A stretch of DNA of 64,000 nucleotides from positions 32,001-96,000 of IMG/VR virus record IMGVR_UViG_3300028048_000064; one strand, written 5' to 3'. A program made the position numbers and the translations under genes. Below are positions 31,605 through 47,816 of this stretch, piece after piece. This stretch comes from a virus (lineage: Duplodnaviria > Caudoviricetes). The notes beneath the pieces are model-generated. The model was not told the DNA's origin, searched no databases, and worked only from the letters and a program-made list of their open reading frames with translations. Each line of letters starts with the position of its first letter. Within the stretch, counting starts at the first letter, position 1.

Positions 31605-32498
31605 ATGTTAGAAAACAACATTAAGAAAGAGGCAAAGGTCGTTGATAATGAAGCCTATAAGGAGAGATTTCAGTTCCTTTTGTGGGTAAACGACAACATT
31701 ATTTGCCAACGTTATTTTAAAATAAACGGTTTTAACAATGATTCTCTACGTTCTCTTGAGTTTAAGGAGACGATGGACAACGTAACGAAGATGATTAAGG
31801 ATGACTTGCTTTCCAAGAGTCGTATTTTTATGTGGTACACCAGGGAAGAACCAATTAAGATGAGTGGTTTCCTAAGTAATTATGACGGTCTTGAGCAGTC
31901 TGACATTCTTGCACTTACTTCTGCTAATTATGAGGGCAATATTCAACTTTCGAATGGTCAAGTAATTAACAAGAACTATTTCAGTTACCCTGAAGGTATT
32001 GATGACTCATATTACGATAGGGAGAAACTTCCGGCATGGGATGTAACCTTTAAGTTCCAGATGCTGATTGATGAGGAAGCTGTTTATGAGCACATTTGGG
32101 ATGGAACTGTATATCCTAAGTATGTACGTAACGGTGTTGACTTGACAAATTCAGATATTCTCTATCGAGATAAAGACCCATCTTCTTTGCATTTCAGTTA
32201 TGCCATCATTCACCATATGACACATGGTAAAATTGACCTTGTTTATCATATTATCAAGCAGATTTGTGAGGTTATGAGTTATAAGTTCGAAGATAGCAAC
32301 AAGTATACCAAGCGAATGAAGTATGGTGACAGAAACTACATCCTCTCGACCTATAATAAGGATTGGGTTGATATTGCAAGACAGTCATGCCTTGAAAAGA
32401 CTAAGGCATATATGAATGAACTTGCACGTGAGGAAAAATATGCGGATACATTTGGACTGACTCCCGGTCAGTACGAATATATTGAGAATCGTCTTTGA
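31605..32498 (+). CDS. Hypothetical protein in the replication module
   Basis: 297 aa ORF between the exonuclease and helicase genes. Confidence 0.65.
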   Translation: MLENNIKKEAKVVDNEAYKERFQFLLWVNDNIICQRYFKINGFNNDSLRSLEFKETMDNVTKMIKDDLLSKSRIFMWYTREEPIKMSGFLSNYDGLEQSDILALTSANYEGNIQLSNGQVINKNYFSYPEGIDDSYYDREKLPAWDVTFKFQMLIDEEAVYEHIWDGTVYPKYVRNGVDLTNSDILYRDKDPSSLHFSYAIIHHMTHGKIDLVYHIIKQICEVMSYKFEDSNKYTKRMKYGDRNYILSTYNKDWVDIARQSCLEKTKAYMNELAREEKYADTFGLTPGQYEYIENRL

Positions 32499-32591: not shown

Positions 32592-34022
32592 ATGAGTTCA
32601 AATCGTAATGACAGAAGTACATTAGGATATCTTGGCGCTGATTTTCAATTAAAACTTGTTAAGTGTTTTTTTGAAGACCAGAAGTATTTTTCTGCGATAC
32701 AGGATATAGTAGACCAAAATATGTTTAGCAATGAACATCTTAGAAGAATTGTAGGTTTCATGAAAGACCGTTATAACTTTAATGAAACTGTTACGACATA
32801 TTTTGAAATGGAAACTATTATCAGAAGCAAGGTTTCTGATGCTATATCTGTTGAGCAACTGCTTGCACATATTGAGAAAATCAAGGAAATGGATTTGAGT
32901 GGTATGGATTTGGTTGAGGAAGAGTCAGAGAAGTTCTTCAAACAGCAAAACCTAACCAAAGCAATCAATAAGGCACAAGACATTATTAAAAAAGGTGATT
33001 TTAGCAATTATTATGCTATTGAGGATATTGTAAAGAAAGCACTTGAAGTCAATACAAAACAAGATTTTGGTTTTAGACTATTTGATAATATTGAAAGTGA
33101 TTTGAAAGAGGATTATCGTAGTGCAATACCTACAGGTGCTGAAAAACTTGATAAAGCACTTTATGGTGGCTTGGCTAAGGGTGAGTTGGGTGTTATTGTA
33201 GCACCCCCTGGTATAGGAAAGTCATCTACTACTACAGGATTTGCTGCAAATGCTGCAATAACCAAGAATGAATATAATAACTACAACGGATATAAAGTAC
33301 TCCATTTCTTCTTTGAGGATGAAGAAATAAACATTAGACGTAAATATTATGGTTTTGTAACTGATATTGATGCTTGTACGCTTTCTTTACCTGATGTAAG
33401 ACCAATTGCAATTCAGAAACTGAATGAAGATACTGATGTCAGAAGAATGCTAAGAGAAAATGTAATTTGTGAACGTTTATCAACAGGTGAAGTAAGGGCA
33501 TCAGAAATTAAGAATAAAATCAGACAGTATATAGCAAGGGGTTTTAAACCGGACCTTATTATCATTGACTATTTTGAATGTATTAAATTCGAAAAGTCTG
33601 ATGTAGGTGACAGTGAATGGTCAAAAGAGGGTGTGACAATGCGTAAACTTGAATCTATGGCAAAGGAGTTCAATGTTGCTATGTGGGTTCCGGTGCAAGG
33701 CACACGTGACTCAATTGGAGCAGAGATAGTTGGTCTTATGCAAGCAGGTGGCTCAGTGAAAAAGACACAGATTGCACATGTGGTAATTACAATGGGTCAG
33801 ACCGACGAAATGAAGACCCAAGGCAGAGTTAATATGTTCCTTGGTAAATTCCGTGCAGGACGTATAGATAAGAATAAATTCCTGAATGTGTATCTTAATA
33901 ACGGTACTTGTAAGTTCGATATGTCTGAAATGGATGATGGGGTTGATTTACCTTATGAACAGAGACAAACAAACCGTATGAATGAAATTGCAAGGGAAAC
34001 AAAGCAAACTTATCAAAAATAA
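32592..34022 (+). CDS. Replicative DnaB-like helicase (T4 gp41-like)
   Basis: IPTG...LD..L.GGLAKGELGVIVAPPGIGKS, FFED, IIIDY, QGTR. Confidence 0.9.
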   Translation: MSSNRNDRSTLGYLGADFQLKLVKCFFEDQKYFSAIQDIVDQNMFSNEHLRRIVGFMKDRYNFNETVTTYFEMETIIRSKVSDAISVEQLLAHIEKIKEMDLSGMDLVEEESEKFFKQQNLTKAINKAQDIIKKGDFSNYYAIEDIVKKALEVNTKQDFGFRLFDNIESDLKEDYRSAIPTGAEKLDKALYGGLAKGELGVIVAPPGIGKSSTTTGFAANAAITKNEYNNYNGYKVLHFFFEDEEINIRRKYYGFVTDIDACTLSLPDVRPIAIQKLNEDTDVRRMLRENVICERLSTGEVRASEIKNKIRQYIARGFKPDLIIIDYFECIKFEKSDVGDSEWSKEGVTMRKLESMAKEFNVAMWVPVQGTRDSIGAEIVGLMQAGGSVKKTQIAHVVITMGQTDEMKTQGRVNMFLGKFRAGRIDKNKFLNVYLNNGTCKFDMSEMDDGVDLPYEQRQTNRMNEIARETKQTYQK

Positions 34023-34210: not shown

Positions 34211-36427
34211 ATGCGTGTTTTAAAAAGAGACAAAACAACAGAGGAATTTCAGTTTGAAAAGATTGAAAGTGCAATTAAGAAAGCATTTGAGTCTTGTGAA
34301 GTACCAGTAAATCAGAAGGTTATAGAATGTATGCATAACCGTTTCAATGAAAATGATGATATTACAGTGCATGTTGAAGAAATACAAGATGCGGTTGAAG
34401 ATTGCTTAATGCAGTGGTGTCCTCCTGTAGCCAAGAAATATATCATATATAGGTATGAGCACAAAGTAATCAGAGAAAGTAATAATAAACTTTATCGTGA
34501 TATCACAAAGAAACTGATGGCAGAAGATGTACAAAATCAGAATGCTAATCTTGACGAACATTCATTTGGCGGAAGAATGGGAGAAGTTAATAGATTAGTT
34601 ATGAAAGATTACGCCTTAAAATATTGTATGTCAAGAAAATCACGCAATAATCATTTGAATAATGAAATTTACATTCATGATTTGGACTCATATGCTGCTG
34701 GTATGCATAATTGTCTTTCAATACCCTTTGATGAACTTCTTGCAAATGGCTTTAACACAAGACAAACTGATGTAAGACCAGCTAATAGTATCAATACGGC
34801 TTTTCAATTAGTTGCTGTTTTGTTCCAATTACAATCACTTCAACAGTTTGGTGGAGTAAGTGCAACGCATCTTGATTGGACTATGGTGCCATATGTTCGC
34901 AAATCATTTTACAAACATTTTGCTGTTGGTGTAGAAACTATTAATGATTGTAATATTTCAAGCAATGAATATAACGATACATTATCAATTGATGACCAAA
35001 AGTATCATGAATATGGCGAAAAATGCTACAACTATGCTTTAAATAGGACTAAAAAGGAACTTAAACAGGCAGTTGAGGGTATGTATCATAATCTTAATAC
35101 TTTGCAATCACGTAGTGGAAACCAATTACCGTTTACAAGTATTAACTATGGCACGTGTACTTTGACGGAGGGACGTATGGTAATTAAGGCTTTGTTAGAT
35201 GGTTCGTTAGCGGGCGTTGGTAAATTCCATAAGACACCAATTTTCCCTTGTGGTATTTTCCAAATGATGAAGGGTGTTAATAGAAAAGAAGGTGAACCAA
35301 ATTATGATTTATTCAAACTTGCATTAAAATCAACCTCACAGAGATTATATCCTAACTATGCTAATTGTGATTGGAGTGGCAACGCAGGGTATGATAAGAA
35401 TGACCCTAAGACATATTTTAGTACAATGGGGTGCAGAACAGCCAATGGTTTTGATATAAACGGATTAGGACAGCAGAAAGACGGACGTGGTAATATTTGT
35501 CCTGTAACTATTATTATGCCAACACTTGCAATGCAAGCAAAGGAAAAAATTGAAGAAAAGGCAATTAAAGAAGAAAGAAAATATTCAAACGACGAAGTTG
35601 TTGCTGAGTTTATGAAAATTCTTGATAAGAAGATTTCAGAGGCTAAGGACATGCTTATTGAACGTTTTGAATGGATTTGCAAACAAAGTCCTGCTTCCGC
35701 TAAGTTTATGTGGGAAAATAATACTATGGCAGGATATGTACCTGAAGAAGGTATTAGGTCAGCACTCAAGCATGGCACAATTGTGATAGGACAACTTGGT
35801 TTGGCTGAAACATTACAAGTCCTTATTCATACAGACCACACAACAGAAGATGGAATGAATCTTGCAAAGGAAATAGAAGGTTTGTTCAAGAAACGTTGTG
35901 CCGAATATAAAGAAAAATATAAATTGAATTTTGGTGTATATTACACCCCTGCTGAAAATCTTTGTTATACGGCAATGAAGAAATTCAAAGACAAGTACGG
36001 TACTATACCTAATGTTTCAGATAGGGAATATTTCACTAATTCAATGCATGTTCCTGTATGGCAAAAGATGACACCGTTTGAGAAAATTGACATCGAGTCT
36101 CAATTGACTGGCTATTCTTCGGCAGGTTGCATTACTTATGTTGAATTACCAAGTACAACAAAGAATAATATTGAAGCACTTGAAACAATTGTCAGTTATG
36201 CTATGGATAAGGATATACCTTATTTTGCTGTTAATATTCCGGTAGATAACTGTAATTCTTGCGGTTATTCGGATGAAATGGGTGATACATGTCCGATATG
36301 CGGAAGCAGCGACATTAGTAGATTAAGACGTGTAACCGGATATCTTACGGGTCACTACAAGTCGGCATTTAACTATGGTAAACAGTGTGAAACAGAAGAA
36401 AGAGTAAAACATATTGAAAAATTTTAA
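34211..36427 (+). CDS. nrdD: Anaerobic (class III) ribonucleoside-triphosphate reductase
   Basis: ATP-cone N-terminus (VLKRD...F..EKI..AI.KA), IYIHDLD, HNC, TMGCRT, TPAENLC, CxxC...CxxC, glycyl loop RRVTGYL. Confidence 0.96.
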   Translation: MRVLKRDKTTEEFQFEKIESAIKKAFESCEVPVNQKVIECMHNRFNENDDITVHVEEIQDAVEDCLMQWCPPVAKKYIIYRYEHKVIRESNNKLYRDITKKLMAEDVQNQNANLDEHSFGGRMGEVNRLVMKDYALKYCMSRKSRNNHLNNEIYIHDLDSYAAGMHNCLSIPFDELLANGFNTRQTDVRPANSINTAFQLVAVLFQLQSLQQFGGVSATHLDWTMVPYVRKSFYKHFAVGVETINDCNISSNEYNDTLSIDDQKYHEYGEKCYNYALNRTKKELKQAVEGMYHNLNTLQSRSGNQLPFTSINYGTCTLTEGRMVIKALLDGSLAGVGKFHKTPIFPCGIFQMMKGVNRKEGEPNYDLFKLALKSTSQRLYPNYANCDWSGNAGYDKNDPKTYFSTMGCRTANGFDINGLGQQKDGRGNICPVTIIMPTLAMQAKEKIEEKAIKEERKYSNDEVVAEFMKILDKKISEAKDMLIERFEWICKQSPASAKFMWENNTMAGYVPEEGIRSALKHGTIVIGQLGLAETLQVLIHTDHTTEDGMNLAKEIEGLFKKRCAEYKEKYKLNFGVYYTPAENLCYTAMKKFKDKYGTIPNVSDREYFTNSMHVPVWQKMTPFEKIDIESQLTGYSSAGCITYVELPSTTKNNIEALETIVSYAMDKDIPYFAVNIPVDNCNSCGYSDEMGDTCPICGSSDISRLRRVTGYLTGHYKSAFNYGKQCETEERVKHIEKF

Positions 36428-36925
36428 ATGAGAGTTTTAAGTATAACATATCCTGATGTAAATAATGGTTTGGGCTGTCGTGCTACTTTATGGGTAGCCG
36501 GCTGCTCACATCATTGTAAGGGTTGCCATAATAAAGAAACATGGTCATTTGAATGTGGTAAGGAATTTGATGAAGAATATAAGCAGAAATTATTTGATGT
36601 TATTTCATTACCTTATATAAAGGGTTTAACATTATCTGGTGGAGACCCATTAGACAGTTATGATGATGTTCTTTCTTTGTTAAAGGATTTTTATGAAAAA
36701 TTCGATGGCACAAAGGATGTATGGCTTTACACCGGATATACAATGAAAGAGTTGTTTGCTAATGGATGGAAAGAAATCATAAACTATGTTGATTACATAG
36801 TTGATGGGAGATATGAAGAAGATAAACGTGATGTATCTTTAGCGTTCAGAGGTTCTAAAAATCAAACAATATATGAGAAATGTGGTGAACATTTTATAAA
36901 AAGTAAATTAAACGATGGAAAATAA
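36428..36925 (+). CDS. nrdG: Anaerobic RNR activase (radical SAM)
   Basis: NG.G.R..LWVAGCSHHCKGCHN (CxxxCxxC), SGGDPL, WLYTGY, VDGRY, FRGSKNQ. Confidence 0.95.
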   Translation: MRVLSITYPDVNNGLGCRATLWVAGCSHHCKGCHNKETWSFECGKEFDEEYKQKLFDVISLPYIKGLTLSGGDPLDSYDDVLSLLKDFYEKFDGTKDVWLYTGYTMKELFANGWKEIINYVDYIVDGRYEEDKRDVSLAFRGSKNQTIYEKCGEHFIKSKLNDGK

Positions 36926-37526
36926 ATATTTAAATAAATTTTTGACTGCAATATTTGCCGGCATTGCAATTTCAATAGGCGGTTTGGCATTTCTTACAAT
37001 GGGCAATGTTATCGGCCCAATTTTATTTACATTTGGTCTTATAACAGTAGTGCATTATAAGTTGGCATTGTATACAGGAACAGTAGGCTTTCTTGAATTG
37101 GTTGGATTTAATAATCAAGTACTAACAAATTGGAAGATAATATTAACAGTTATATTAGGTAATATAATTGGGTGTGGCATAGTTGCATTATTGGCAAGTT
37201 ATGGTAATTTTACATTTGCAATCGCTGCTAATAGTATAGTAATGTCAAGACTATCACAGCCGATTATTTCTGTTATTATTAGAGCAATTGGATGTGGAAT
37301 GATTATGAGCACAGCAGTACAATTTGCAAGGGAAGGTAGATTTCTTCCTTTACTTTTTGGTGTACCTTTGTTTATATATTGTGGCTTTTATCATAGCATC
37401 GCCGATACTTTTTACTATTGCTTCTCATCCATGAAACCAACCGGTTCAATGTTATACACACTGTCTATGACTTATTTTGGAAATTATCTTGGATGCAGTG
37501 CTTATAAACTGTTTGTTAAAAAATAA
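36915..37526 (+). CDS. Formate/nitrite transporter (FNT) family channel
   Basis: About six hydrophobic helices; AI.AG..I.IG, F..GL, LYTG, GN.IG, AIGC, GF.HSIAD, GN.LG match the FNT signature series. Confidence 0.85.
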   Translation: MENKYLNKFLTAIFAGIAISIGGLAFLTMGNVIGPILFTFGLITVVHYKLALYTGTVGFLELVGFNNQVLTNWKIILTVILGNIIGCGIVALLASYGNFTFAIAANSIVMSRLSQPIISVIIRAIGCGMIMSTAVQFAREGRFLPLLFGVPLFIYCGFYHSIADTFYYCFSSMKPTGSMLYTLSMTYFGNYLGCSAYKLFVKK

Positions 37527-37599: not shown

Positions 37600-37986
37600 A
37601 TGGCAAGGACACAAAAATACGGAATTAAATTCCCCATTACAGTTAAAAGTGAAGAAAAGACATTCTTTGACTTGGATAATACTGCTGGTGAGGGAATAAA
37701 ATCACAGATAATGCATCTTATCTTCACACCAATTGGGCAAAGGATAAGAAGGCCTCTTTTCGGGTCTAAACTTATACAATTTATATTCTCACCAAACGAT
37801 GGTGAAAGCTGGGGTGATGTTGTATCTGAAATTAAGGATATGGTTAAAAGAAATATTCCAAATTGCAACATTGATGATATAAATGTCTATGAGGTAAATG
37901 AAGGTTTGGGGCTTGTTGTAAGTATAAAATACAGTGTTACGGAAAACGGTGGCACAACGCAATATCAAATAATGACAAATATATAA
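37600..37986 (+). CDS. Baseplate wedge protein (gp25-like)
   Basis: YGIKFP, IKSQIMHLIFT..GQR...P.FGS.L..FIF.P. Confidence 0.85.
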   Translation: MARTQKYGIKFPITVKSEEKTFFDLDNTAGEGIKSQIMHLIFTPIGQRIRRPLFGSKLIQFIFSPNDGESWGDVVSEIKDMVKRNIPNCNIDDINVYEVNEGLGLVVSIKYSVTENGGTTQYQIMTNI

Positions 37987-38001: not shown

Positions 38002-40068
38002 ATGGCAGAAAACAGAATACAATATTCAGCAAGAAATTATGATGATTTTAGAAAATCCATTATAGATATTTCAAAAAAATACTATCCAGACATTTCTAAT
38101 AGTTGGGATGATGCGTCTATTGGAAGTTGGCTGACAGACGTTTTCGCTGATGTGGCCGATGCCATCAATTATCATATTGACAGAACATATCAGGAAACAT
38201 CAGTTAATGCAGCCGGCCAGAGGAAGTCATTACTTAATATTGCAAGGAATAATGGTGTAAAGGTTCCGGGTAAGAAAGCTGCTATTGTTGAGGTAGAGTT
38301 ATCATGTGAGTTACCTTTATATACACAGGGTAACACATCTAATGGTGACTTGAGTCAAGCAGATGAGAATTATGCACCTTATATTAAGAGGGGTACATTA
38401 TTTTCAACCGGTCTTGTAACGTTTGAATTAATTCATGATGTTGATTTCACACAGCAGTTTGATGAGGATGGTATTTCAAACAGACAGATAATTCCAAATC
38501 ATGATTCGAATGGTAATATTGTAAGTTATACATATAAGAAGTTAGGAATTGCAGTTGCCGGCCAGAGCAAGGTATTCAAGCAGATTATTACGAATAAAGA
38601 CATAAAACCATTTATGAGTATATTGCTACAAGATAGCGACATACTTGGTGTTGAGAGTATCATTGTAAAGAAAGGTACAGATTTATCAACTAATCCGGCA
38701 ATTACTGATTATAGTGTTGATGAGGAAACATTTACAAGAACGAAAAACGGTAATGAAGAAACAATTAACCGTTATTTTGAAGTCGATAACCTTGTTGACC
38801 AATACAGATTTGGATATGAAATCGAAGAGGTTACAGATGATGATGGTAACACTATTAGATACAATCCTGTTTGGGAAAAAGAAACAACTGAATATGTAAT
38901 TGCCAAAATTGGTAACGAATATAAAGAAGTTAAACTTGATAATCCTATTGTAATCAGACAAATAGCCAAGGGTAAATGGAAACGTCTTAAGAACAAGTTT
39001 GTTACTGAATTTACTGACAATGGTTCATTGAAAATCACATTTGGCGCTGGCTTAAAGAACCAATATGGTACTATTCCAACAGAAGCCAAGCAATTTACTC
39101 AATATATTATGTCACGTATGGCAGCTAATGACTATATGGGTGTATTACCTGAAACGGATACAACTATGTATATTCTTTATAGAGTTGGTGGTGGTGAACA
39201 GAGTAACATTGCAAAGGATACACTTACAAATATCACCAATTTGAGCATGACAATTGAAGGAAACTGTGATGATGGTGATGATGCAAGAAAGAAGAGGGAC
39301 GTACAGAATTCATTGTCTGTAACGAATACAACTCCGTCTTATGGTGGTAAGGATGAACCGTCTGATGAGGAATTAAGACAACTTATCAAGTATAATGCCG
39401 GTGCTAAGAACAGATGCGTTACATTGCATGACTATGAAGCAAGGATTATTGAACTTCCTGCTAAGTATGGAACACCATTCAGATGCGGTGTTGTTGAAGA
39501 GAACAACAAAGTAGTTATTTATACACTTGGTTTAGATGCTGAGGGTCATCTTGAAAGCAAATTATCAGAATATGTTGCTAAGAACATCAAGGAATATCTT
39601 TCAATGTACAAGATGATTAATGATTTTGTTGAGATACGTTCCGGAAAGATTATTAATGTGGCTTTTGAGATTGACATCTATATTGAAAAGTCATATGATA
39701 AGGCCGATGTAACCAAGAAGGTCATTGAAATGGTTCAAAACTATATGGATGTGCGTGCCCATTTAATGGGTCAGGAAATTTTCCTTGGCGATTTGGAGAA
39801 AGAAATCTCAAAGATGGATGGTGTTAAGAATCTTATTGAGTTAAGGGTATATAATAAAGTTGGCAAAGGGTATTCAGATGATGCAACAACTCAGCAACTT
39901 ATTGATGCCAATGACTGTTGTTACAGTGAATATTCAGAAGGTGACGGTAATTATGACAACAGAATTGACTTGAAAGCAAGCGATAAAATACTGTTTACAG
40001 ATGCCAATAGTATGATTGAGGTTAAATATCCGAATAAAGATATTGTAGTTAATGTTCGTCAAAGATAG
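38002..40068 (+). CDS. Baseplate wedge subunit (gp6 / baseplate J-like)
   Basis: Y..RNYDD.R, YHID...QE, I.FG.G, YRVGGG..SN, GG.DE, R.VT..DY. Confidence 0.8.
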   Translation: MAENRIQYSARNYDDFRKSIIDISKKYYPDISNSWDDASIGSWLTDVFADVADAINYHIDRTYQETSVNAAGQRKSLLNIARNNGVKVPGKKAAIVEVELSCELPLYTQGNTSNGDLSQADENYAPYIKRGTLFSTGLVTFELIHDVDFTQQFDEDGISNRQIIPNHDSNGNIVSYTYKKLGIAVAGQSKVFKQIITNKDIKPFMSILLQDSDILGVESIIVKKGTDLSTNPAITDYSVDEETFTRTKNGNEETINRYFEVDNLVDQYRFGYEIEEVTDDDGNTIRYNPVWEKETTEYVIAKIGNEYKEVKLDNPIVIRQIAKGKWKRLKNKFVTEFTDNGSLKITFGAGLKNQYGTIPTEAKQFTQYIMSRMAANDYMGVLPETDTTMYILYRVGGGEQSNIAKDTLTNITNLSMTIEGNCDDGDDARKKRDVQNSLSVTNTTPSYGGKDEPSDEELRQLIKYNAGAKNRCVTLHDYEARIIELPAKYGTPFRCGVVEENNKVVIYTLGLDAEGHLESKLSEYVAKNIKEYLSMYKMINDFVEIRSGKIINVAFEIDIYIEKSYDKADVTKKVIEMVQNYMDVRAHLMGQEIFLGDLEKEISKMDGVKNLIELRVYNKVGKGYSDDATTQQLIDANDCCYSEYSEGDGNYDNRIDLKASDKILFTDANSMIEVKYPNKDIVVNVRQR

Positions 40069-40511: not shown

Positions 40512-43500
40512 ATGGCAGAAAATTATAAATCATATCGTATTCGTACCAATGTTGGTCAGGATTCTCCAAATGTAATCAATGTACAACTTGACCAAACATA
40601 TGATGCATTTGAAATATTGTCATTGAAGATTGACAGTGATAATGCATATAATCTATTTCAATCAGATAAGGGTATTATTGTTGGCCGTGTATTGGCTAAT
40701 GGCGGATTTGGTGTGCCTAATGCCAAAATCTCGATTTTCATACCTACTGATGATACTATGGATATGGAAAAACATATTCTTTATCCTTATTCATCAGTGA
40801 ATGATACAAATAATGACAGAATACGTTATAATCTTCTACCGGATGAGAAAGATGAGGCATGTTATCAAAATGTCGGTACATTCCCAAATAAACGTTATGT
40901 GCTTGATAATGATGATGTAATTGAGGTATTTGACCGTTTTTGGAAGTATACAACAGTTACAAACAGTGCCGGTGACTATATGATGTATGGTATACCAACC
41001 GGTAGTCAGACATTGCATGCAGATATTGATTTATCGGATATTGGATTGTTGTCAGTCAGACCAATTGATATGATGTACAAAGGATTTAATATCAATCAGT
41101 TTGAAAGCCCGAATAAATTCAAACAAGATACTAATTTAAATAGTCTTGCACAGATTAAGACACAAGATGTAGGCGTATTTGTTTATCCTTTCTGGGGTGA
41201 TAGTACTGATAATCCTGAGAACATTGCAGTTACACGTTGTGATATTCAAGTTGATTATAAGTTTGAGCCAACATGTGTATTTATTGGCAGCATTATAACA
41301 GATACAGGTAGTAATGCTATTGGTAAGAACTGTGCAGGCACAGATGAAGTTGGTAAAATGTCTGACTTAGTGGCCGGTGAAGGTTCTATTGAAATGATAC
41401 GAAAAACCTTTGACGGTAAGGTTGAACAATTTCAGATTAAGGGTAATCGTGTAATTGATGGTGACGGAGTGTGGTGTTATCAGATACCGATGAACCTTGA
41501 TTATGTGATGACTGATGAATATGGAAACCTTGTACCAAGTGACAATCCTGATAAGGGTATCCCTACAAGAGCAAGGGTTAGATTTAGAATTTCATTGGAT
41601 GATGCCATAAGTGACAGTACTGCAAGGAAGAGATGTAAATATCTTGTCCCTAACAATCCACGTATGGATGAGGAACGTTTTCCTGAGTTCTACAAGTCAC
41701 ATGAGGCCGATTATGAATTTGGCAGCAATACAAAGGAAGAAAGTTATTGTGACTTATTCTGGAATAAGGTTTATTCTGTGAAAAACTATATTCCGAGAAT
41801 ACAGAAGAATACCAAGATTACAAATAGAAAACATACTGGTATTAAGTTGATTAACCATTATGGTGATAATAACCCAATGCCGTATAATAATCTTAGTCTG
41901 AAACTTTCATTTACATATAGGTTTATCTGTGTATTAACAAAGATATTCATATTGTTGGTGACATTCCTTAATGGAATTATTACATTGTTGGCCGCAGTTC
42001 CATGTATCCTTTATTCGCTGTTTCAGACAATTGCGGATTTGTTTAATTCAATGCGTATCAGAATTAGGGCATTTGGTAAGACGCTTATTGATATTTGTCT
42101 TGGATGCCCTATTGGTGCGGTATTTCAGACTTTTGCCGATTTGTTTCATGCAATTATTCCATCGTGTATTGCAATTTCATCTGATTTCTGTGCAGGTGAT
42201 GTAACACACGCATATACTTATTATTCAGGTTGCGGTAGATTTCTCGGCATAAGAATGTCATGGTTATCTTGTGCTTGGGATGTGACACAAGATAGGCATA
42301 ATGAAGAGCAAGCAGAACTTGATAACCCGGAAGACAGAACAACAGCACAAAACGAGAATGCTGAGCTATATAACTGTGTTGAAAGTGAATTGGCTGAAAG
42401 TAATGATGCTGCATCATTTAATTTCCAAAATGACTGGATAAATGGTAGCCTTTATGCGCCGTTGTGGTTTAGAAAGATTACTCCGAAGAAAAAATTCCTT
42501 TTTGGTACAATTACTCGTAAGGCAAAGGATGAGTGGTGTTCTTCAGACCATGTATATACAGGTAGTTTAAGACTATATTATCCTTGTGCTGTCAATAGAA
42601 ACGGTAATCAGTCATATACTAACCATAATGGTGATATTGAGAATGCAAGGTATATGAATGCTGACACTGGTTGTGGCGATGACTGTCATACAAATTACAC
42701 ACCGGTAGGTTTGAACAACGGTCTTATTTTGACAAGGCAGACAATGCTTGGTCAAACTGTATATTATTACAAGGCAGTTGAATATGATGCCACTATAAAG
42801 GATATAAAACTTTTGTTTGCAAGTGACATCATATTGTTGGGTAGTTTAAATGATTGTGACTTAAATGGTGTTCCACAATTCTTTAAATCTCTTGAGTCTT
42901 CAACATATAAACTTCCGTCAAACATGCTATTTACTGATAATGAAATTAAAATATCATTTAGCCCTGATGGTAAACAAGTTAAGAGTGTTGACCAAGTAAG
43001 TCATACTGAAATGACAGGTAATGACTGGGGAAACTCAAATGATGATATGTGTAATGGCGATGACGGCGGCTTATTCTACGATATTGGTTGTTCTTCCATT
43101 GAACTTGAACCAAAGTCATGTATTAACCTTTCACGTATTTGTGAGTTTGGCGTATCGTTGGATGAAGCAAAACAAGTTCCTGACTTGGCAGCATTACAGT
43201 CAGATGAAACAGGTAATAGCTCATTCTCAACACTGATTCCAGACGGTTTTATTTCAAAGGATGAACTTTACAATGATGATTGGAGAAGTATGTTTGCTAC
43301 AATGAATGGTAATGAATTGAAGACTAAACTCAATAAGGAGAATGGTCTTAAAGAGTATGACTTCAGATATTTGTATGTAGACAACTTTGATAATTCATTG
43401 CAGTCTGAAATGCGTAATTCTCAGCGAAATTGTGGTGATTACACATATAGGAATAACTATAAACTTGAAATGTTTAGCCCTGGTTATTATGATTTCAGAA

Positions 43501-46500
43501 TGGGTAAAAATCCTTACTACTACGATGCATTTGATGGTGGTAATGGCACATTCCCACGTTATGAAAATTCATTCTATTTCTACTTTGGCTTAAAGGTTGG
43601 AAAGACAGCATTGGATAAGTTTAATAGTCAGTTCTTCAGTGAATGTACAAATGTTGCCAATGCTGAGGATGCTGTACAGATAGTTTCAAAGGGAAATACG
43701 TGGTGCTCAGAGATTAATGATAGTTATGGTGACGAAGCCCTTGATGATGGAATTATAACACCAAGTGAAATGACAGGCTTGGATGATAATGACGGATATG
43801 TTAAATTTGATTTGACAGAAGTTTCATTACCTTGTGATATTGACATTATCAATTTGGATAATTCAGTGTATGTATATCCGACAATAGAACAAAATACATA
43901 CGAAAAAATAGCAATTGGTAAATATTGGTACAATCATATTGCTTCAGTAGATGAAAAGAAAGGTTATACATTAATTTCATCAATACCTGCATTAAAGAAT
44001 GGTTCTTATAAAGTTGTTATAACAGATAATGACGGAAATATAATGGAATTTAGATTTAACATGACATCTGACTTCCTGACGTTTAAGACTGAAGCAACAT
44101 CATTTAGACAACCGGATAATGTATTGCCTGATGACATGGAGGTTATTGCTAATAATACCGATGGTGTGGATTGTACTAGTAGTGATTATGATTTACACTC
44201 TTCACGTACCATTGGTGGTACTATATTGGTTGATACGATAATTGATAATCAGACAAGTGATTTATTAGATAATTTCCTAATTACCGTAGACTCTGAAAAG
44301 AACATTGGTTATCGCCCTGACGATGGTGATGGAAAATACCATTTTGCCATAAAGTATAAAATACAAAGACCGATACGTCCGGCAGAAATATCTTATGACG
44401 ATGATGGTATAATAGATGCAGAAACGGGATGGATTACTGATGGTAATGATGATGCATTACTTTGTACAAAAGTTGTACAAGAGGGGTCAAAGATAGAAAA
44501 TGTGATGTTCCTAATTGGCGTACCAAAGAGTGATGAGAATTACATTATAAAGGTAAGGCAACTCTGTAATGGCGTTGAAACACAAAATGTTTCTACACAG
44601 TATGTAAAGGTTAAATCTGCTACACCATTTAAGATGTACATCAATGATGTTGTTGATTATGATGTTATTTCACATTGGAAAACTGGGTGGTATGCTGATG
44701 GTAAAAGAAAAATCTCTTATGATGGTATTGTAAGCCCTAATTGGTATAATATTGGCGATAACAATGACTATAAGTGGGAAAACTACAGTAACATGAAAGA
44801 CAACATGGATGCTCTTCAAACAAAATTTGAAGAAAGAACTGCTTTGATTGATAGTTTAAGCAATGCAATTAATGGTATCCCGTCTGCATATTCAAGTTTC
44901 AAGCCAATTGTATATACAGGAATTGAGAATGATATCGAAACCAATATTTCATACTATCCAAGCGTAAATGGGCAACTTACGGATGATTACATTAAAGAAA
45001 ATATAGAAAATGAACAAAAGAGTATTATAAATGACAATGTTGCACAGACAGGTACCATTTATTATTTTAATGAGCTGATTAATAACGGAAATGACCAAAT
45101 CCGTGACATTAATGAAAGAGTTAGTACAGGAACTAATCCGTATATGTTTGGTATTAATCAATTAAATGAGTATATTAATACTTGGAGTAGAGAAATTGAG
45201 AGGATTGAATCTAAGGATGAATTAACAGAAGAAGATGAAAATCTTATAGGTGACTATACTACAAGAATATTATTATTCCAAGATGCTGTTTCTACTCTTC
45301 AAGCACAGATTACTAATATAGAAAATAATATTAATAATTGGCAAGATATTATTACATCATTAACTGAATGGATTAATTATGACAATGATATTTTAGAGCG
45401 TTTTGAAACAATTAGGGAACAACAATTGGAATTTGTTGATACGATGCGTTTAACATTCCAATTAACATGTCCGAATGAAGAAAAGAGCATAAGATTTAAA
45501 GGTATTACCGATGATACACCGGTTTCATTTGTCAGTGCCTTCAGAGGTGAGGAAACATTGTCAGAAGAGGTTAGGAATACACTTGAAAAACAAATATCAA
45601 ATGGTAATATTGGCTTACTTGATAATATTACTATACCAAGTTTGACTTATACAGAAAGTGAAAAATTTGGTAATACAGATTATAGGATTGGAGCAACAAA
45701 TTATTGTTTCGGTACTGATAATAGAGCTGATTTCACTGAGAATAAGGCTACAGGAGGCTCAGTACAAGTAAAACCTATTAAATATCCTTATTTCATTGGC
45801 ATTAAAAATAAGGCTGATAAAGTTATACCGAATGATTTGGATTTTGACGGTGTTCACAATTTATTTGGCTTCCATATTGTAGATAAGATTTTCAATATGG
45901 AATATGCTGCATGGTCATCATTTATTGACTTACCATATTTCGGTATATTACATGATGCAATGAAAGAGGAAAAAGTCAGAATGAGTGGTATATTTGCAAG
46001 TAATGTTTTAAACGGTTATATTAATAGCAAAGATGAAAATGGTATTACAACGTTCCAAAAACAACGTTATGGTAATAATGGAATTAAGATATATACTCCA
46101 ATTAGTAATGATAATACAGAAGAAACATTACCTACAAAGAGATACATTATTTCAGAAGACTATGGGATAGATGTTGATAATTATGATTTAAATACGGATG
46201 AAGGTAAAGAGGCCTTAACAATTGACACATTGGCAGTTGTTGAGAATATTCTTGATGGTATTGGAACAGAATATAATGAAAATGCATTAAAGGCATATAT
46301 TAAGAGTAAAATCACTTATGCAACACAATACGGAATGAATGCATTTGAATATGCATTAACTAATTTCTTGCCATGTCCGAATTATAAAATAACCAAAGTA
46401 TATGAAGGTGGTAATGATGTAACCGGCAAGTACTTGCATCAATATTTGACAGTACCTAATAAGAATAACTCAGTTAAGGTTACTGATAAAAATGCTTGTT

Positions 46501-47816
46501 CAAACAGTTTTAATGTCTATGGTCCGATGAAGGTTGTTTTGGATGAAGAAGAGTCTTATCAGGATATACGTTATATTGAAGATGATGAGGATGAATATGA
46601 TTTAGGTAAATTATCATTTAATGTGGAAGGTGCAAGTGGTAAGGGTGTAACATATTACATTTTTAATATAAGTGACGTAATAGACCAAAAAGGTGAACCT
46701 CGTGACCGATATCCACTAAATTATATTAATAAACTCTATTTAACAATGCAAGATGGTGGCAATGAAGTTAAATTGCCAATATGCCAATTGATGTATACTG
46801 GGGATGAGTCAATGACCGGCGTTTTTAGAAATGACCAAAATACGGCAAAATATTTGTTTAATATAAACACAACAAAAAGTTTATTACAGACATATTGTGA
46901 TACAGGTGTTCCATCACAGTCTTCAGACCCAACAACAGGAAGAACATATCAGACTATGGGCTATGGTAATAATGGTGAATTTGGAATGAATTGGAGAACA
47001 AGACACACATCACCATCAGCAATGCATTATGTTGTTGCTGTTAGTGAAAATAACTGCATGGCTATATCTCCGGTATTTGATTTTTCAGAGATAAAATGTG
47101 ATATACAGTTGGTAAAGGTTTATATTAGAAAAAACCCTGGTGATGAAAATACTTTGATGTATAAATGTAAAATGTGGGTAAATAATTTAGGTGACATCTA
47201 TTATTTAAGAAATTATCCATTTACAGTCTCACTTATGTATACTGATAATGTTGACCATGTGGTTTTATCTACTGCTGAGGTTGATGCCGGCAACACTAGT
47301 CCTGCGTATTTTGACATCACAGCTGAACAATATGATGCCATTGGCAATGAATATTTCTGGCCATATATCCGTCTTACAGATTGTACAACATTACGCCATA
47401 TGATTGGCCCTAGCAGACATTGGCCATTCTACGATGAAAAGCTTGAAATTGAATGGCAGACAAATGGTGGATATTGGTGTATCAAGCAGTTTGCACAGAA
47501 TGAGACGTTAGACCAACAAGATATAGTTTTCTATGAAAATGCGGAACAAATAAACGACCAAAGAAACAGACAATTATATGCCACAAATAGTGAAACTGCT
47601 CAAACCTATTATCTTAATTACAATATCCGAAGTGATGATTATTGGTCAAGCCCTACCAATACAAAAAGTATTTTAAAGAAAAAGAAAAGTGGCGGCGGAT
47701 ATTATACATTTAGAGGGTGGGCTTTGCAGCCTGATGGAAATCCAATGCCGTTTAATATAAGTGAACAACTTGTATATAATACACCAATTACTTGGTATGC
47801 AATTTGGGGTGAATAA
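40512..47816 (+). CDS. Very large virion structural protein (baseplate/tail appendage)
   Basis: 2434 aa; N-terminal GRV.ANGGFGVPNAKISIF...TN.AGDY...G.P.G prealbumin-like domain, Cys-rich regions, hydrophobic hairpin, coiled coil, C-terminal Y.F.GW...T.YA.W motif; follows the gp25 and gp6 genes. Confidence 0.55.
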   Translation: MAENYKSYRIRTNVGQDSPNVINVQLDQTYDAFEILSLKIDSDNAYNLFQSDKGIIVGRVLANGGFGVPNAKISIFIPTDDTMDMEKHILYPYSSVNDTNNDRIRYNLLPDEKDEACYQNVGTFPNKRYVLDNDDVIEVFDRFWKYTTVTNSAGDYMMYGIPTGSQTLHADIDLSDIGLLSVRPIDMMYKGFNINQFESPNKFKQDTNLNSLAQIKTQDVGVFVYPFWGDSTDNPENIAVTRCDIQVDYKFEPTCVFIGSIITDTGSNAIGKNCAGTDEVGKMSDLVAGEGSIEMIRKTFDGKVEQFQIKGNRVIDGDGVWCYQIPMNLDYVMTDEYGNLVPSDNPDKGIPTRARVRFRISLDDAISDSTARKRCKYLVPNNPRMDEERFPEFYKSHEADYEFGSNTKEESYCDLFWNKVYSVKNYIPRIQKNTKITNRKHTGIKLINHYGDNNPMPYNNLSLKLSFTYRFICVLTKIFILLVTFLNGIITLLAAVPCILYSLFQTIADLFNSMRIRIRAFGKTLIDICLGCPIGAVFQTFADLFHAIIPSCIAISSDFCAGDVTHAYTYYSGCGRFLGIRMSWLSCAWDVTQDRHNEEQAELDNPEDRTTAQNENAELYNCVESELAESNDAASFNFQNDWINGSLYAPLWFRKITPKKKFLFGTITRKAKDEWCSSDHVYTGSLRLYYPCAVNRNGNQSYTNHNGDIENARYMNADTGCGDDCHTNYTPVGLNNGLILTRQTMLGQTVYYYKAVEYDATIKDIKLLFASDIILLGSLNDCDLNGVPQFFKSLESSTYKLPSNMLFTDNEIKISFSPDGKQVKSVDQVSHTEMTGNDWGNSNDDMCNGDDGGLFYDIGCSSIELEPKSCINLSRICEFGVSLDEAKQVPDLAALQSDETGNSSFSTLIPDGFISKDELYNDDWRSMFATMNGNELKTKLNKENGLKEYDFRYLYVDNFDNSLQSEMRNSQRNCGDYTYRNNYKLEMFSPGYYDFRMGKNPYYYDAFDGGNGTFPRYENSFYFYFGLKVGKTALDKFNSQFFSECTNVANAEDAVQIVSKGNTWCSEINDSYGDEALDDGIITPSEMTGLDDNDGYVKFDLTEVSLPCDIDIINLDNSVYVYPTIEQNTYEKIAIGKYWYNHIASVDEKKGYTLISSIPALKNGSYKVVITDNDGNIMEFRFNMTSDFLTFKTEATSFRQPDNVLPDDMEVIANNTDGVDCTSSDYDLHSSRTIGGTILVDTIIDNQTSDLLDNFLITVDSEKNIGYRPDDGDGKYHFAIKYKIQRPIRPAEISYDDDGIIDAETGWITDGNDDALLCTKVVQEGSKIENVMFLIGVPKSDENYIIKVRQLCNGVETQNVSTQYVKVKSATPFKMYINDVVDYDVISHWKTGWYADGKRKISYDGIVSPNWYNIGDNNDYKWENYSNMKDNMDALQTKFEERTALIDSLSNAINGIPSAYSSFKPIVYTGIENDIETNISYYPSVNGQLTDDYIKENIENEQKSIINDNVAQTGTIYYFNELINNGNDQIRDINERVSTGTNPYMFGINQLNEYINTWSREIERIESKDELTEEDENLIGDYTTRILLFQDAVSTLQAQITNIENNINNWQDIITSLTEWINYDNDILERFETIREQQLEFVDTMRLTFQLTCPNEEKSIRFKGITDDTPVSFVSAFRGEETLSEEVRNTLEKQISNGNIGLLDNITIPSLTYTESEKFGNTDYRIGATNYCFGTDNRADFTENKATGGSVQVKPIKYPYFIGIKNKADKVIPNDLDFDGVHNLFGFHIVDKIFNMEYAAWSSFIDLPYFGILHDAMKEEKVRMSGIFASNVLNGYINSKDENGITTFQKQRYGNNGIKIYTPISNDNTEETLPTKRYIISEDYGIDVDNYDLNTDEGKEALTIDTLAVVENILDGIGTEYNENALKAYIKSKITYATQYGMNAFEYALTNFLPCPNYKITKVYEGGNDVTGKYLHQYLTVPNKNNSVKVTDKNACSNSFNVYGPMKVVLDEEESYQDIRYIEDDEDEYDLGKLSFNVEGASGKGVTYYIFNISDVIDQKGEPRDRYPLNYINKLYLTMQDGGNEVKLPICQLMYTGDESMTGVFRNDQNTAKYLFNINTTKSLLQTYCDTGVPSQSSDPTTGRTYQTMGYGNNGEFGMNWRTRHTSPSAMHYVVAVSENNCMAISPVFDFSEIKCDIQLVKVYIRKNPGDENTLMYKCKMWVNNLGDIYYLRNYPFTVSLMYTDNVDHVVLSTAEVDAGNTSPAYFDITAEQYDAIGNEYFWPYIRLTDCTTLRHMIGPSRHWPFYDEKLEIEWQTNGGYWCIKQFAQNETLDQQDIVFYENAEQINDQRNRQLYATNSETAQTYYLNYNIRSDDYWSSPTNTKSILKKKKSGGGYYTFRGWALQPDGNPMPFNISEQLVYNTPITWYAIWGE

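Follow-up and report, generated by a model that had tools for sequence, protein, structure and literature searches.

This study focused on a window of 64,000 nt, positions 32,001–96,000 of the IMG/VR virus record IMGVR_UViG_3300028048_000064, and on three adjacent genes within it: nrdD and nrdG, which specify an anaerobic ribonucleotide reductase (RNR) and its activase, and a short gene of the FNT family of membrane channels. The full record is 149,924 bp, with a CheckV completeness estimate of 41%, and its source is a cattle-rumen jumbo phage with a genome of about 0.36 Mb. The three genes are very tightly packed. The TAA stop codon of nrdD is followed by the ATG of nrdG with a spacing of 0 nt, and the ATG of the FNT gene lies 11 nt inside the end of nrdG (raw sequence ATGGAAAATAA). 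The 11-nt overlap and the packing as a whole recur in the related phage loci L001, L002 and L098–L102, whose FNT proteins are 73–94% identical to that of the window, and since the overlap is kept among such diverged relatives it is conserved and not a chance occurrence. The nrdD-nrdG-FNT genes form one coupled unit, as the preliminary description of this DNA had proposed, and would presumably be co-transcribed. A scan of the operon for promoters and terminators gave counts equal to the shuffled expectation, the sigma-70 consensus being unsuited to Bacteroidota-type hosts, and an Rfam search of the operon gave no match.

The nrdD product scores 471.5 bits against TIGR02487 (cut-off 326.35), and its best match among solved structures is the NrdD of Prevotella copri (8p23, 3.7e-111), the alignment running from end to end. 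Key motifs of the two proteins correspond closely: STMGCRT with ATMGCRT at the finger loop, RVTGYL with RITGYL at the glycyl-radical loop, and RGN with RGN at the site that holds Asn435. In the finger loop a Met lies two residues ahead of the radical Cys, and Asn replaces the third Cys of thioredoxin-type enzymes, for which the SCCRL finger loop in the NrdD of the Prevotella locus L027 provides a contrast. The Zn-ribbon cysteines are also present (NCNSCG...TCPICG, a CxxC...CxxC arrangement at about residues 681–698). The P. copri enzyme requires formate, and its Asn435 takes the place of the third cysteine of thioredoxin-type enzymes (PMC11226230); a Met/Cys mechanism has been described, and formate is the reductant of the class III enzymes of E. 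coli, T4 and L. lactis (PMC4390871). Because of these motifs and the homology to the formate-requiring P. copri enzyme, assignment of the window NrdD to the formate-dependent class III type (NrdD1 of Wei et al. 2014) is supported. The Met-Gly-Cys-Arg finger loop and GY glycyl loop named in the preliminary description are both in place, and its prediction of a formate-type enzyme agrees with the Met/Asn motifs and the best solved match. The CxxxCxxC radical-SAM motif of NrdG (C26, C30, C33) can be read from the DNA at 36503-36526. No gene for pyruvate formate-lyase (PFL), class I RNR or class II RNR was found in the 150-kb phage record, which is a fragment of the genome.

The product of the third gene matches PF01226 over profile positions 18–230 of 240. 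Its AlphaFold2 model, built from 27 family members, has a pLDDT of 94.1 and a pTM of 0.90, with short helices at residues 53–57 and 161–170 that agree with the six-helix, aquaporin-like FNT protomer and its interrupted TM2 (omega loop) and TM5 (S loop), and in Foldseek searches it matched the hydrosulfide channel HSC, FocA, NirC and PfFNT with TM scores of 0.79–0.84 and a probability of 1.00, at about 20% identity to each. The model points to a true FNT fold, and a functional channel for anions or weak acids is very probable. Nine conserved pore residues of FocA have been described together with their roles (PMC9380403), and these were mapped onto the phage protein through hidden Markov model alignments and conservation among 27 diverse short FNTs. 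FocA T91, H209 and N262 correspond to T54, H160 and N190, all three invariant; S210 is kept as S161; K156 is conservatively changed to R112, an Arg that is invariant in two family alignments; and N213 is changed to D164. The other three positions are considered below. T54 and H160 align to the LFT and EHS motifs of FocA, NirC and HSC. The central His of FocA is needed for uptake, and variants with N or Q at this position only export (PMC8914244).

The preliminary description had taken the third gene for a formate channel of the FNT family. The fold and the pore Thr and His bear out the family, but a closer identity with FocA failed: the protein scores 33.7 bits against the FocA equivalog model TIGR04060, with a cut-off of 290.1, and 28.1 bits against the NirC model NF008595, with a cut-off of 293. 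Judged by these profiles it is not a FocA, and it belongs to a large, uncharacterised subfamily of short FNTs, of around 200 aa and without the N-terminal domain. At 50% identity this subfamily forms 1,605 clusters with E <= 1e-3 (649 with E <= 1e-10), and it is widespread in rumen Prevotella, members of which carry proteins 46–49% identical to the phage protein. The host is presumably a Prevotella-like bacterium.

Table 1. Features of the nrdD-nrdG-FNT locus and its surroundings (positions are those of the window).
Feature	Position	Strand	Details
DnaB-like replicative helicase	32592..34022	+	PF03796 DnaB_C 5.2e-16; upstream neighbour, final gene of replication block
nrdD, class III (anaerobic) ribonucleoside-triphosphate reductase, N-terminal ATP-cone, predicted formate (Met/Asn) type	34211..36427	+	738 aa; Pfam NRDD 4.7e-145, ATP-cone 6e-18
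Finger loop T-M-G-C-R-T, residues 405-410 (thiyl-radical Cys408, Met406)	35423..35440	+	aligned to ATMGCRT of P. copri NrdD
Glycyl-radical loop R-V-T-G-Y-L, residues 707-712 (Gly710)	36329..36346	+	aligned to RITGYL of P. copri NrdD; PF01228 Gly_radical 1.2e-07
nrdG, radical-SAM activase of NrdD	36428..36925	+	165 aa; TIGR02491 164.3 bits (cut-off 126.1); PF13353 5.8e-47
Short FNT-family gene, predicted channel	36915..37526	+	203 aa; PF01226 70.5 bits (cut-off 34.6); AlphaFold2, Foldseek
FNT pore codon T54	37074-37076	+	
FNT pore codon R112	37248-37250	+	
FNT pore codon H160	37392-37394	+	
gp25-like baseplate wedge gene	37600..37986	+	PF04965 3.5e-07; downstream neighbour, opens structural block
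Baseplate J-like gene	38002..40068	+	PF04865 2.6e-06; follows gp25 in all related loci
Single 2,434-aa open reading frame after baseplate genes	40512-47816		presumably giant baseplate or tail-fibre protein

The three-gene unit lies where the replication block of the genome meets the structural block (Table 1). Upstream of nrdD, the replication block also carries a 5'-3' exonuclease gene and an open reading frame (ORF) without assigned family, followed by the helicase gene.

One line of evidence for a connection between the channel and the reductase is that their genes have come together repeatedly. In L001, L002 and L098–L102 the order nrdD-nrdG-FNT-gp25-J is kept, while the identity to the window proteins falls to 64% for NrdD and 56% for NrdG. 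A second arrangement, nrdD-FNT-nrdG with overlapping gene ends, occurs in L155, whose NrdD is 79% identical to that of the window, and a third, FNT-nrdD-nrdG, in the 132-kb contig L152. In the crAss-like phages L179 and L180 (IMG/VR records of 91 and 112 kb; PF21825), nrdD-nrdG is followed by three genes, the FNT gene and then an SPFH gene. Wherever the finger loop of an FNT-linked phage NrdD can be read (window, L099, L152, L179) it is Met-Gly-Cys-Arg; the sequences of L155 and L180 end short of it.

These arrangements were separated in a tree of 70 short FNTs inferred by maximum likelihood (IQ-TREE, LG+C20). The window FNT clade is monophyletic (support 100/97), the FNT of L155 falls inside a clade of phages that carry the gene beside Hsp70 and DnaJ genes (99/94), that of L152 groups with L161, L124 and L162 (96/88), next to Prevotella sequences, and those of L179 and L180 lie on a very long, separate branch. 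Forcing the L155 sequence into the window clade was rejected, with a delta lnL of 69 and p = 0.02 in the approximately unbiased (AU) test, for a grouping that was chosen after inspection of the tree. At least three, and probably four, FNT lineages therefore lie in or beside nrdDG, in three gene orders, and two phage lineages place the gene elsewhere. The synteny survey that the preliminary description had called for gives a positive signal. Chance adjacency to one specific gene pair would be of the order of 1% per insertion, a rough estimate based on the hundreds of genes in each genome. An insertion hot spot after nrdG does not explain FNT genes that lie between nrdD and nrdG (L155) or upstream of nrdD (L152). 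Several unrelated phages have paired an FNT with nrdDG independently, which speaks for a functional link.

Two features of the crAss-like loci may be added. At L179:3327-5555, and in L180, the genes after nrdD-nrdG comprise a crAss001_48-like gene, the divergent short FNT and an SPFH/Band-7 gene. The NrdG proteins of the two phages are 75% identical, and their nrdD genes are unlike each other.

Bacterial genomes provide a second line of evidence. A genome-content survey was made of 101 Bacteroidaceae genomes; it was of pilot scale, and its p values take no account of shared ancestry. The short FNT was found in 17 genomes and canonical FocA in eight, with no genome carrying both. All eight FocA genomes possess PFL (8/8), and the short FNT is depleted in PFL-positive genomes, PFL being present in 4/17 short-FNT genomes versus 53/84 of the others (p = 0.003). 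PFL generally accompanies formate-type NrdD (42/48 genomes with this enzyme versus 15/53 without it; p = 1.7e-9), and the short FNT is present in four of the six genomes that have the enzyme but not PFL, compared with 2/42 of those with both (p = 0.001). Of 50 further Prevotella genomes with a short FNT, 36 have formate-type NrdD (Pfam scores around 640–655 bits) and only four have PFL. In five short-FNT Prevotella genomes that were checked one by one, the short FNT is the only FNT. These counts fit a role in uptake that replaces the internal production of formate. Prevotella sp. tc2-28 carries two short-FNT paralogues (L011, L012).

Taken together, the short FNT is, somewhat more probably than not, a formate/H+ uptake channel that feeds the phage NrdD, that is, an accessory module for the supply of reductant (a rough probability of 0.55). 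In such a scheme NrdG would install the glycyl radical on NrdD, which would then reduce nucleoside triphosphates to deoxyribonucleoside triphosphates (dNTPs), converting one formate to CO2 per turnover. The short FNT, translated along with the two enzymes, would be placed in the inner membrane of the host, forming presumably a pentamer as other FNTs do, and let formate or formic acid pass in from the rumen fluid, in a proton-linked uptake that depends on the pore His. The net flux would be inward, and dNTP synthesis for a genome of about 0.36 Mb could in this way become independent of the PFL of the host. The preliminary description had spoken of gut formate; with a cattle-rumen phage as the source, this is corrected to rumen formate. 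The scale of the possible demand can be illustrated with assumed values. For a burst of 50 and a cell of 1 fL, 0.36 Mb x 2 strands x 50 amounts to about 3.6e7 formate per cell, or tens of mM, and in a similar estimate the need for about 3.6e7 dNTPs compares with about 6e6 nucleotides recyclable from a 3-Mb host chromosome. Of the original proposal, that the phage installs a channel to take up or retain formate and so drive dNTP synthesis, the repeated nrdDG pairing and the formate-type NrdD speak in favour; against it, the protein is no closer to FocA than to NirC, HSC or PfFNT, and sister phages do without the gene.

A number of observations weigh against formate uptake for NrdD, and most of them are also what would be expected if the short FNT carried some other small anion or weak acid (nitrite, hydrosulfide, lactate or acetate), serving detoxification or a pH or anion balance unrelated to NrdD, with the place after nrdG being simply a permissive slot for insertions where the replication and structural genes meet. 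The first of these concern the protein itself. The top Foldseek matches of the model are to HSC, and the substrate cannot be read from homology, all characterised FNTs being equidistant from the phage protein; with only about 20% identity to each of them, and no match at the level of a subfamily, a substrate cannot be transferred from HSC, NirC or PfFNT. Besides N213, three of the nine pore positions differ from FocA: D88 is A51, E208 is Y159, and N172, which is essential for formate passage in FocA (PMC9380403), is an invariant Gly (G128). The phage protein also begins at about FocA residue 30, so that the N-terminal cytoplasmic domain, which FocA needs for gating, is missing.

The second set of observations comes from the sister jumbo phages, several of which share the order DnaB-nrdD-nrdG-gp25-BaseplateJ and a Met-type NrdD and have no FNT gene. 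In L090, with an NrdD 83% identical to that of the window, and in L093–L096 (69%), only a gap of 70–95 nt is found in the slot between nrdG and gp25, while in L091, L092 and L097 the slot is filled with about 1.1 kb of other DNA, which in L091 comprises a 108-aa ORF and a papain-like peptidase gene. No PF01226 match was found anywhere in five sister-phage records that are 28–80% complete. The FNT is thus a dispensable accessory gene of patchy distribution, the slot between nrdG and gp25 is variable, and the position could by itself be the product of a hot spot for insertions. Its presence does not track NrdD similarity, being absent from L090 (83%) and present in L099 (64%), a distribution that suggests mosaic exchange or repeated loss. 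Regarding co-occurrence with Met-type NrdD, all readable FNT-linked phage enzymes are of this type, but the sister phages show that the Met type, while necessary, does not predict the presence of an FNT.

Elsewhere the gene is found in quite different company. In L003–L007, L168–L170, L173, L176 and L177 the FNT, 46–47% identical to that of the window, follows either an Hsp70-Hsp20-x-DnaJ set or an ADP-ribosylglycohydrolase gene, and in L178 it follows the gene for a 656-aa protein of unknown kind. Within the chaperone group of jumbo phages (L003–L007, L168–L170 and L177, on large viral and metagenome contigs of 76–435 kb), which carries a full set of Hsp70/DnaK-like, Hsp20 and DnaJ genes, the FNT gene comes directly after DnaJ, and in many cases its start codon overlaps the DnaJ stop codon; L007 has an ADP-ribosylglycohydrolase gene upstream of the chaperone set. 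No nrdD was found in the 76-kb record of L003. Across 80 Prevotella loci there is likewise no conserved neighbour of the short FNT, with unrelated housekeeping and other genes such as those for Rho, GlnA-III, a TonB receptor, peptidases and a pseudouridine synthase beside it.

The only linkage to nrdD seen in bacterial chromosomes is the arrangement nrdD-nrdG-LOG-FNT of L027, L031 and L042, from metagenome-assembled genomes of rumen Prevotellaceae, and here the NrdD is of the Thermotoga (thioredoxin, SCCRL) type. The pairing with Met-type NrdD does not extend to Prevotella chromosomes, where the sole nrdD-linked FNTs accompany the thioredoxin type, and this operon was accordingly rejected as support for formate supply. 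The genome counts include some opposing figures as well. Formate-type NrdD is present in 6/17 short-FNT genomes and 42/84 others, a difference that is not significant, and the short FNT is found in 9/38 genomes from which both formate-type NrdD and PFL are absent. As 11/17 short-FNT genomes lack formate-type NrdD, this enzyme cannot be the only client of the short FNT.

Even so, transport of another anion unrelated to NrdD is rather unlikely. A hot spot after nrdG would leave the FNT placements of L155, L152 and the crAss-like phages unexplained, and the anti-correlation with PFL, along with the enrichment of the short FNT in genomes with NrdD1 and no PFL (4/6), points specifically to formate.

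Three side observations were made on the nrdD genes mentioned above. The NrdD proteins of L093–L096 and L099 are longer than the 738 aa of the window protein, at 768–776 aa, because of internal insertions. In L091 (IMGVR_UViG_3300028591_005215), nrdD is split into three pieces (L091:404-3996) that correspond to residues 1–158, 157–407 and 408–738 of the window NrdD; the first insert (about 1.1 kb) contains an ORF for a homing endonuclease of the GIY-YIG/NUMOD3 kind, the second interruption lies within the TMGCRT codons of the catalytic finger loop, and Rfam detected no group I or group II intron in the split gene. At L027:1862-5588, a LOG/lysine-decarboxylase-like gene forms part of the operon, with a 4-nt overlap, and the genome concerned (G122) encodes a formate-type NrdD as well, on the same contig at a distance of about 27 kb.

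It could also be argued that the short FNT handles formate mainly in the other direction, as a valve for efflux or equilibration that relieves formate or acid stress or redirects host fermentation during takeover. FocA works in both directions and releases formate from growing cells (PMC8914244), and PFL is present in some short-FNT genomes (4/17 and 4/50, as given above). However, most short-FNT genomes lack PFL and hence a bulk supply of formate for export, the pore His that is invariant here is the uptake residue of FocA and is missing from the efflux-only variants (PMC8914244), and the repeated linkage is to a consumer of formate, NrdD, and not to a producer, so that a valve of this kind is improbable. 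A role other than transport, in membrane perturbation or lysis timing, superinfection exclusion or anti-defence, might be considered for a small, patchy and lineage-specific membrane protein that resembles many phage morons and has no family in PHROGs, but it is highly improbable given that the pore Thr, His, Arg and Asn show little or no variation among phage and bacterial members, as in a working channel, that PADLOC gave no match, and that the phage genes are orthologues of a housekeeping family widespread in bacteria.

Returning to formate uptake for NrdD, a wider version can be put forward more tentatively, at a little under even odds. The short FNT subfamily as a whole (at least 1,600 clusters at 50% identity, and the sole FNT of many rumen Prevotella) might be a dedicated formate importer for the formate-type RNR of cells that lack PFL, which large phages of anaerobes, both jumbo myophages and crAss-like phages, would have captured repeatedly and joined to nrdDG because, for big genomes, reductant as well as enzyme would limit the dNTP supply. 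If formate uptake is correct, it would give a very large and uncharacterised part of the FNT family a function that can be tested, and would explain where the many rumen Prevotella with formate-type NrdD and without PFL obtain their formate. It would also tie the replication of rumen phages to the extracellular formate pool, which is at the same time a main substrate of methanogens, so that phage productivity and formate cross-feeding could affect each other.

Taken singly, NrdD, NrdG and the FNT are each ordinary, and what is new is their pairing and its recurrence. Full-text literature searches found no description of a phage-encoded FNT or of an nrdDG-FNT module. A megablast search with the operon gave no match, and among 50,697 deposited phage records only one FNT match was found, MT839063.1 (L181; 'UNVERIFIED: Bacteriophage sp.'). 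This record was rejected as a phage FNT because its gene order, FNT-dnaX-ybaB-recR-smpB, is typical of bacterial chromosomes, and it is probably mislabelled. If the proposed function holds, this would be the first case found of a phage channel for the direct reductant of the phage's own enzyme, and would extend the idea of auxiliary metabolic genes to the supply of a co-substrate.

Auxiliary metabolic genes of phages can secure a substrate for replication, an example being the phosphate-uptake gene pstS of cyanophages. Like pstS, the short FNT would be a host-like uptake component for a nutrient that limits nucleotide and DNA synthesis; unlike pstS, it would import the direct reductant of a phage enzyme, and its gene is translationally packed with the gene for that enzyme. 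The NrdD/NrdG systems of P. copri (8p23) and phage T4 resemble that of the window in having an ATP-cone and a Zn ribbon, the TMGCRT and glycyl loops, an Asn where thioredoxin-type enzymes carry the third Cys, and NrdG next to NrdD, but have no channel gene attached. HSC of Clostridioides difficile (3tdo, 3te0), NirC (4fc4) and PfFNT (6vqq, 7e26) fit the FNT model equally well and have the same Thr/His pore. E. coli FocA (TCDB 1.A.16) shares the fold predicted for the phage channel (TM scores of about 0.82 to 9g49 and 3klz), and its T91, H209, S210 and N262 are kept and its basic K156 matched by R112, whereas it is considerably longer (285 aa compared with 203 aa) and N172, D88, E208 and N213 are changed in the phage protein. 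In design, the closest analogue is the focA-pflB-pflA operon, where a channel gene likewise stands in one operon with a glycyl-radical enzyme and its activase. The N-terminal domain of FocA is the part that contacts PflB (PMC5600444), and the phage channel lacks this domain; moreover, PflB makes formate, while the partner of the phage channel, NrdD, would consume it.

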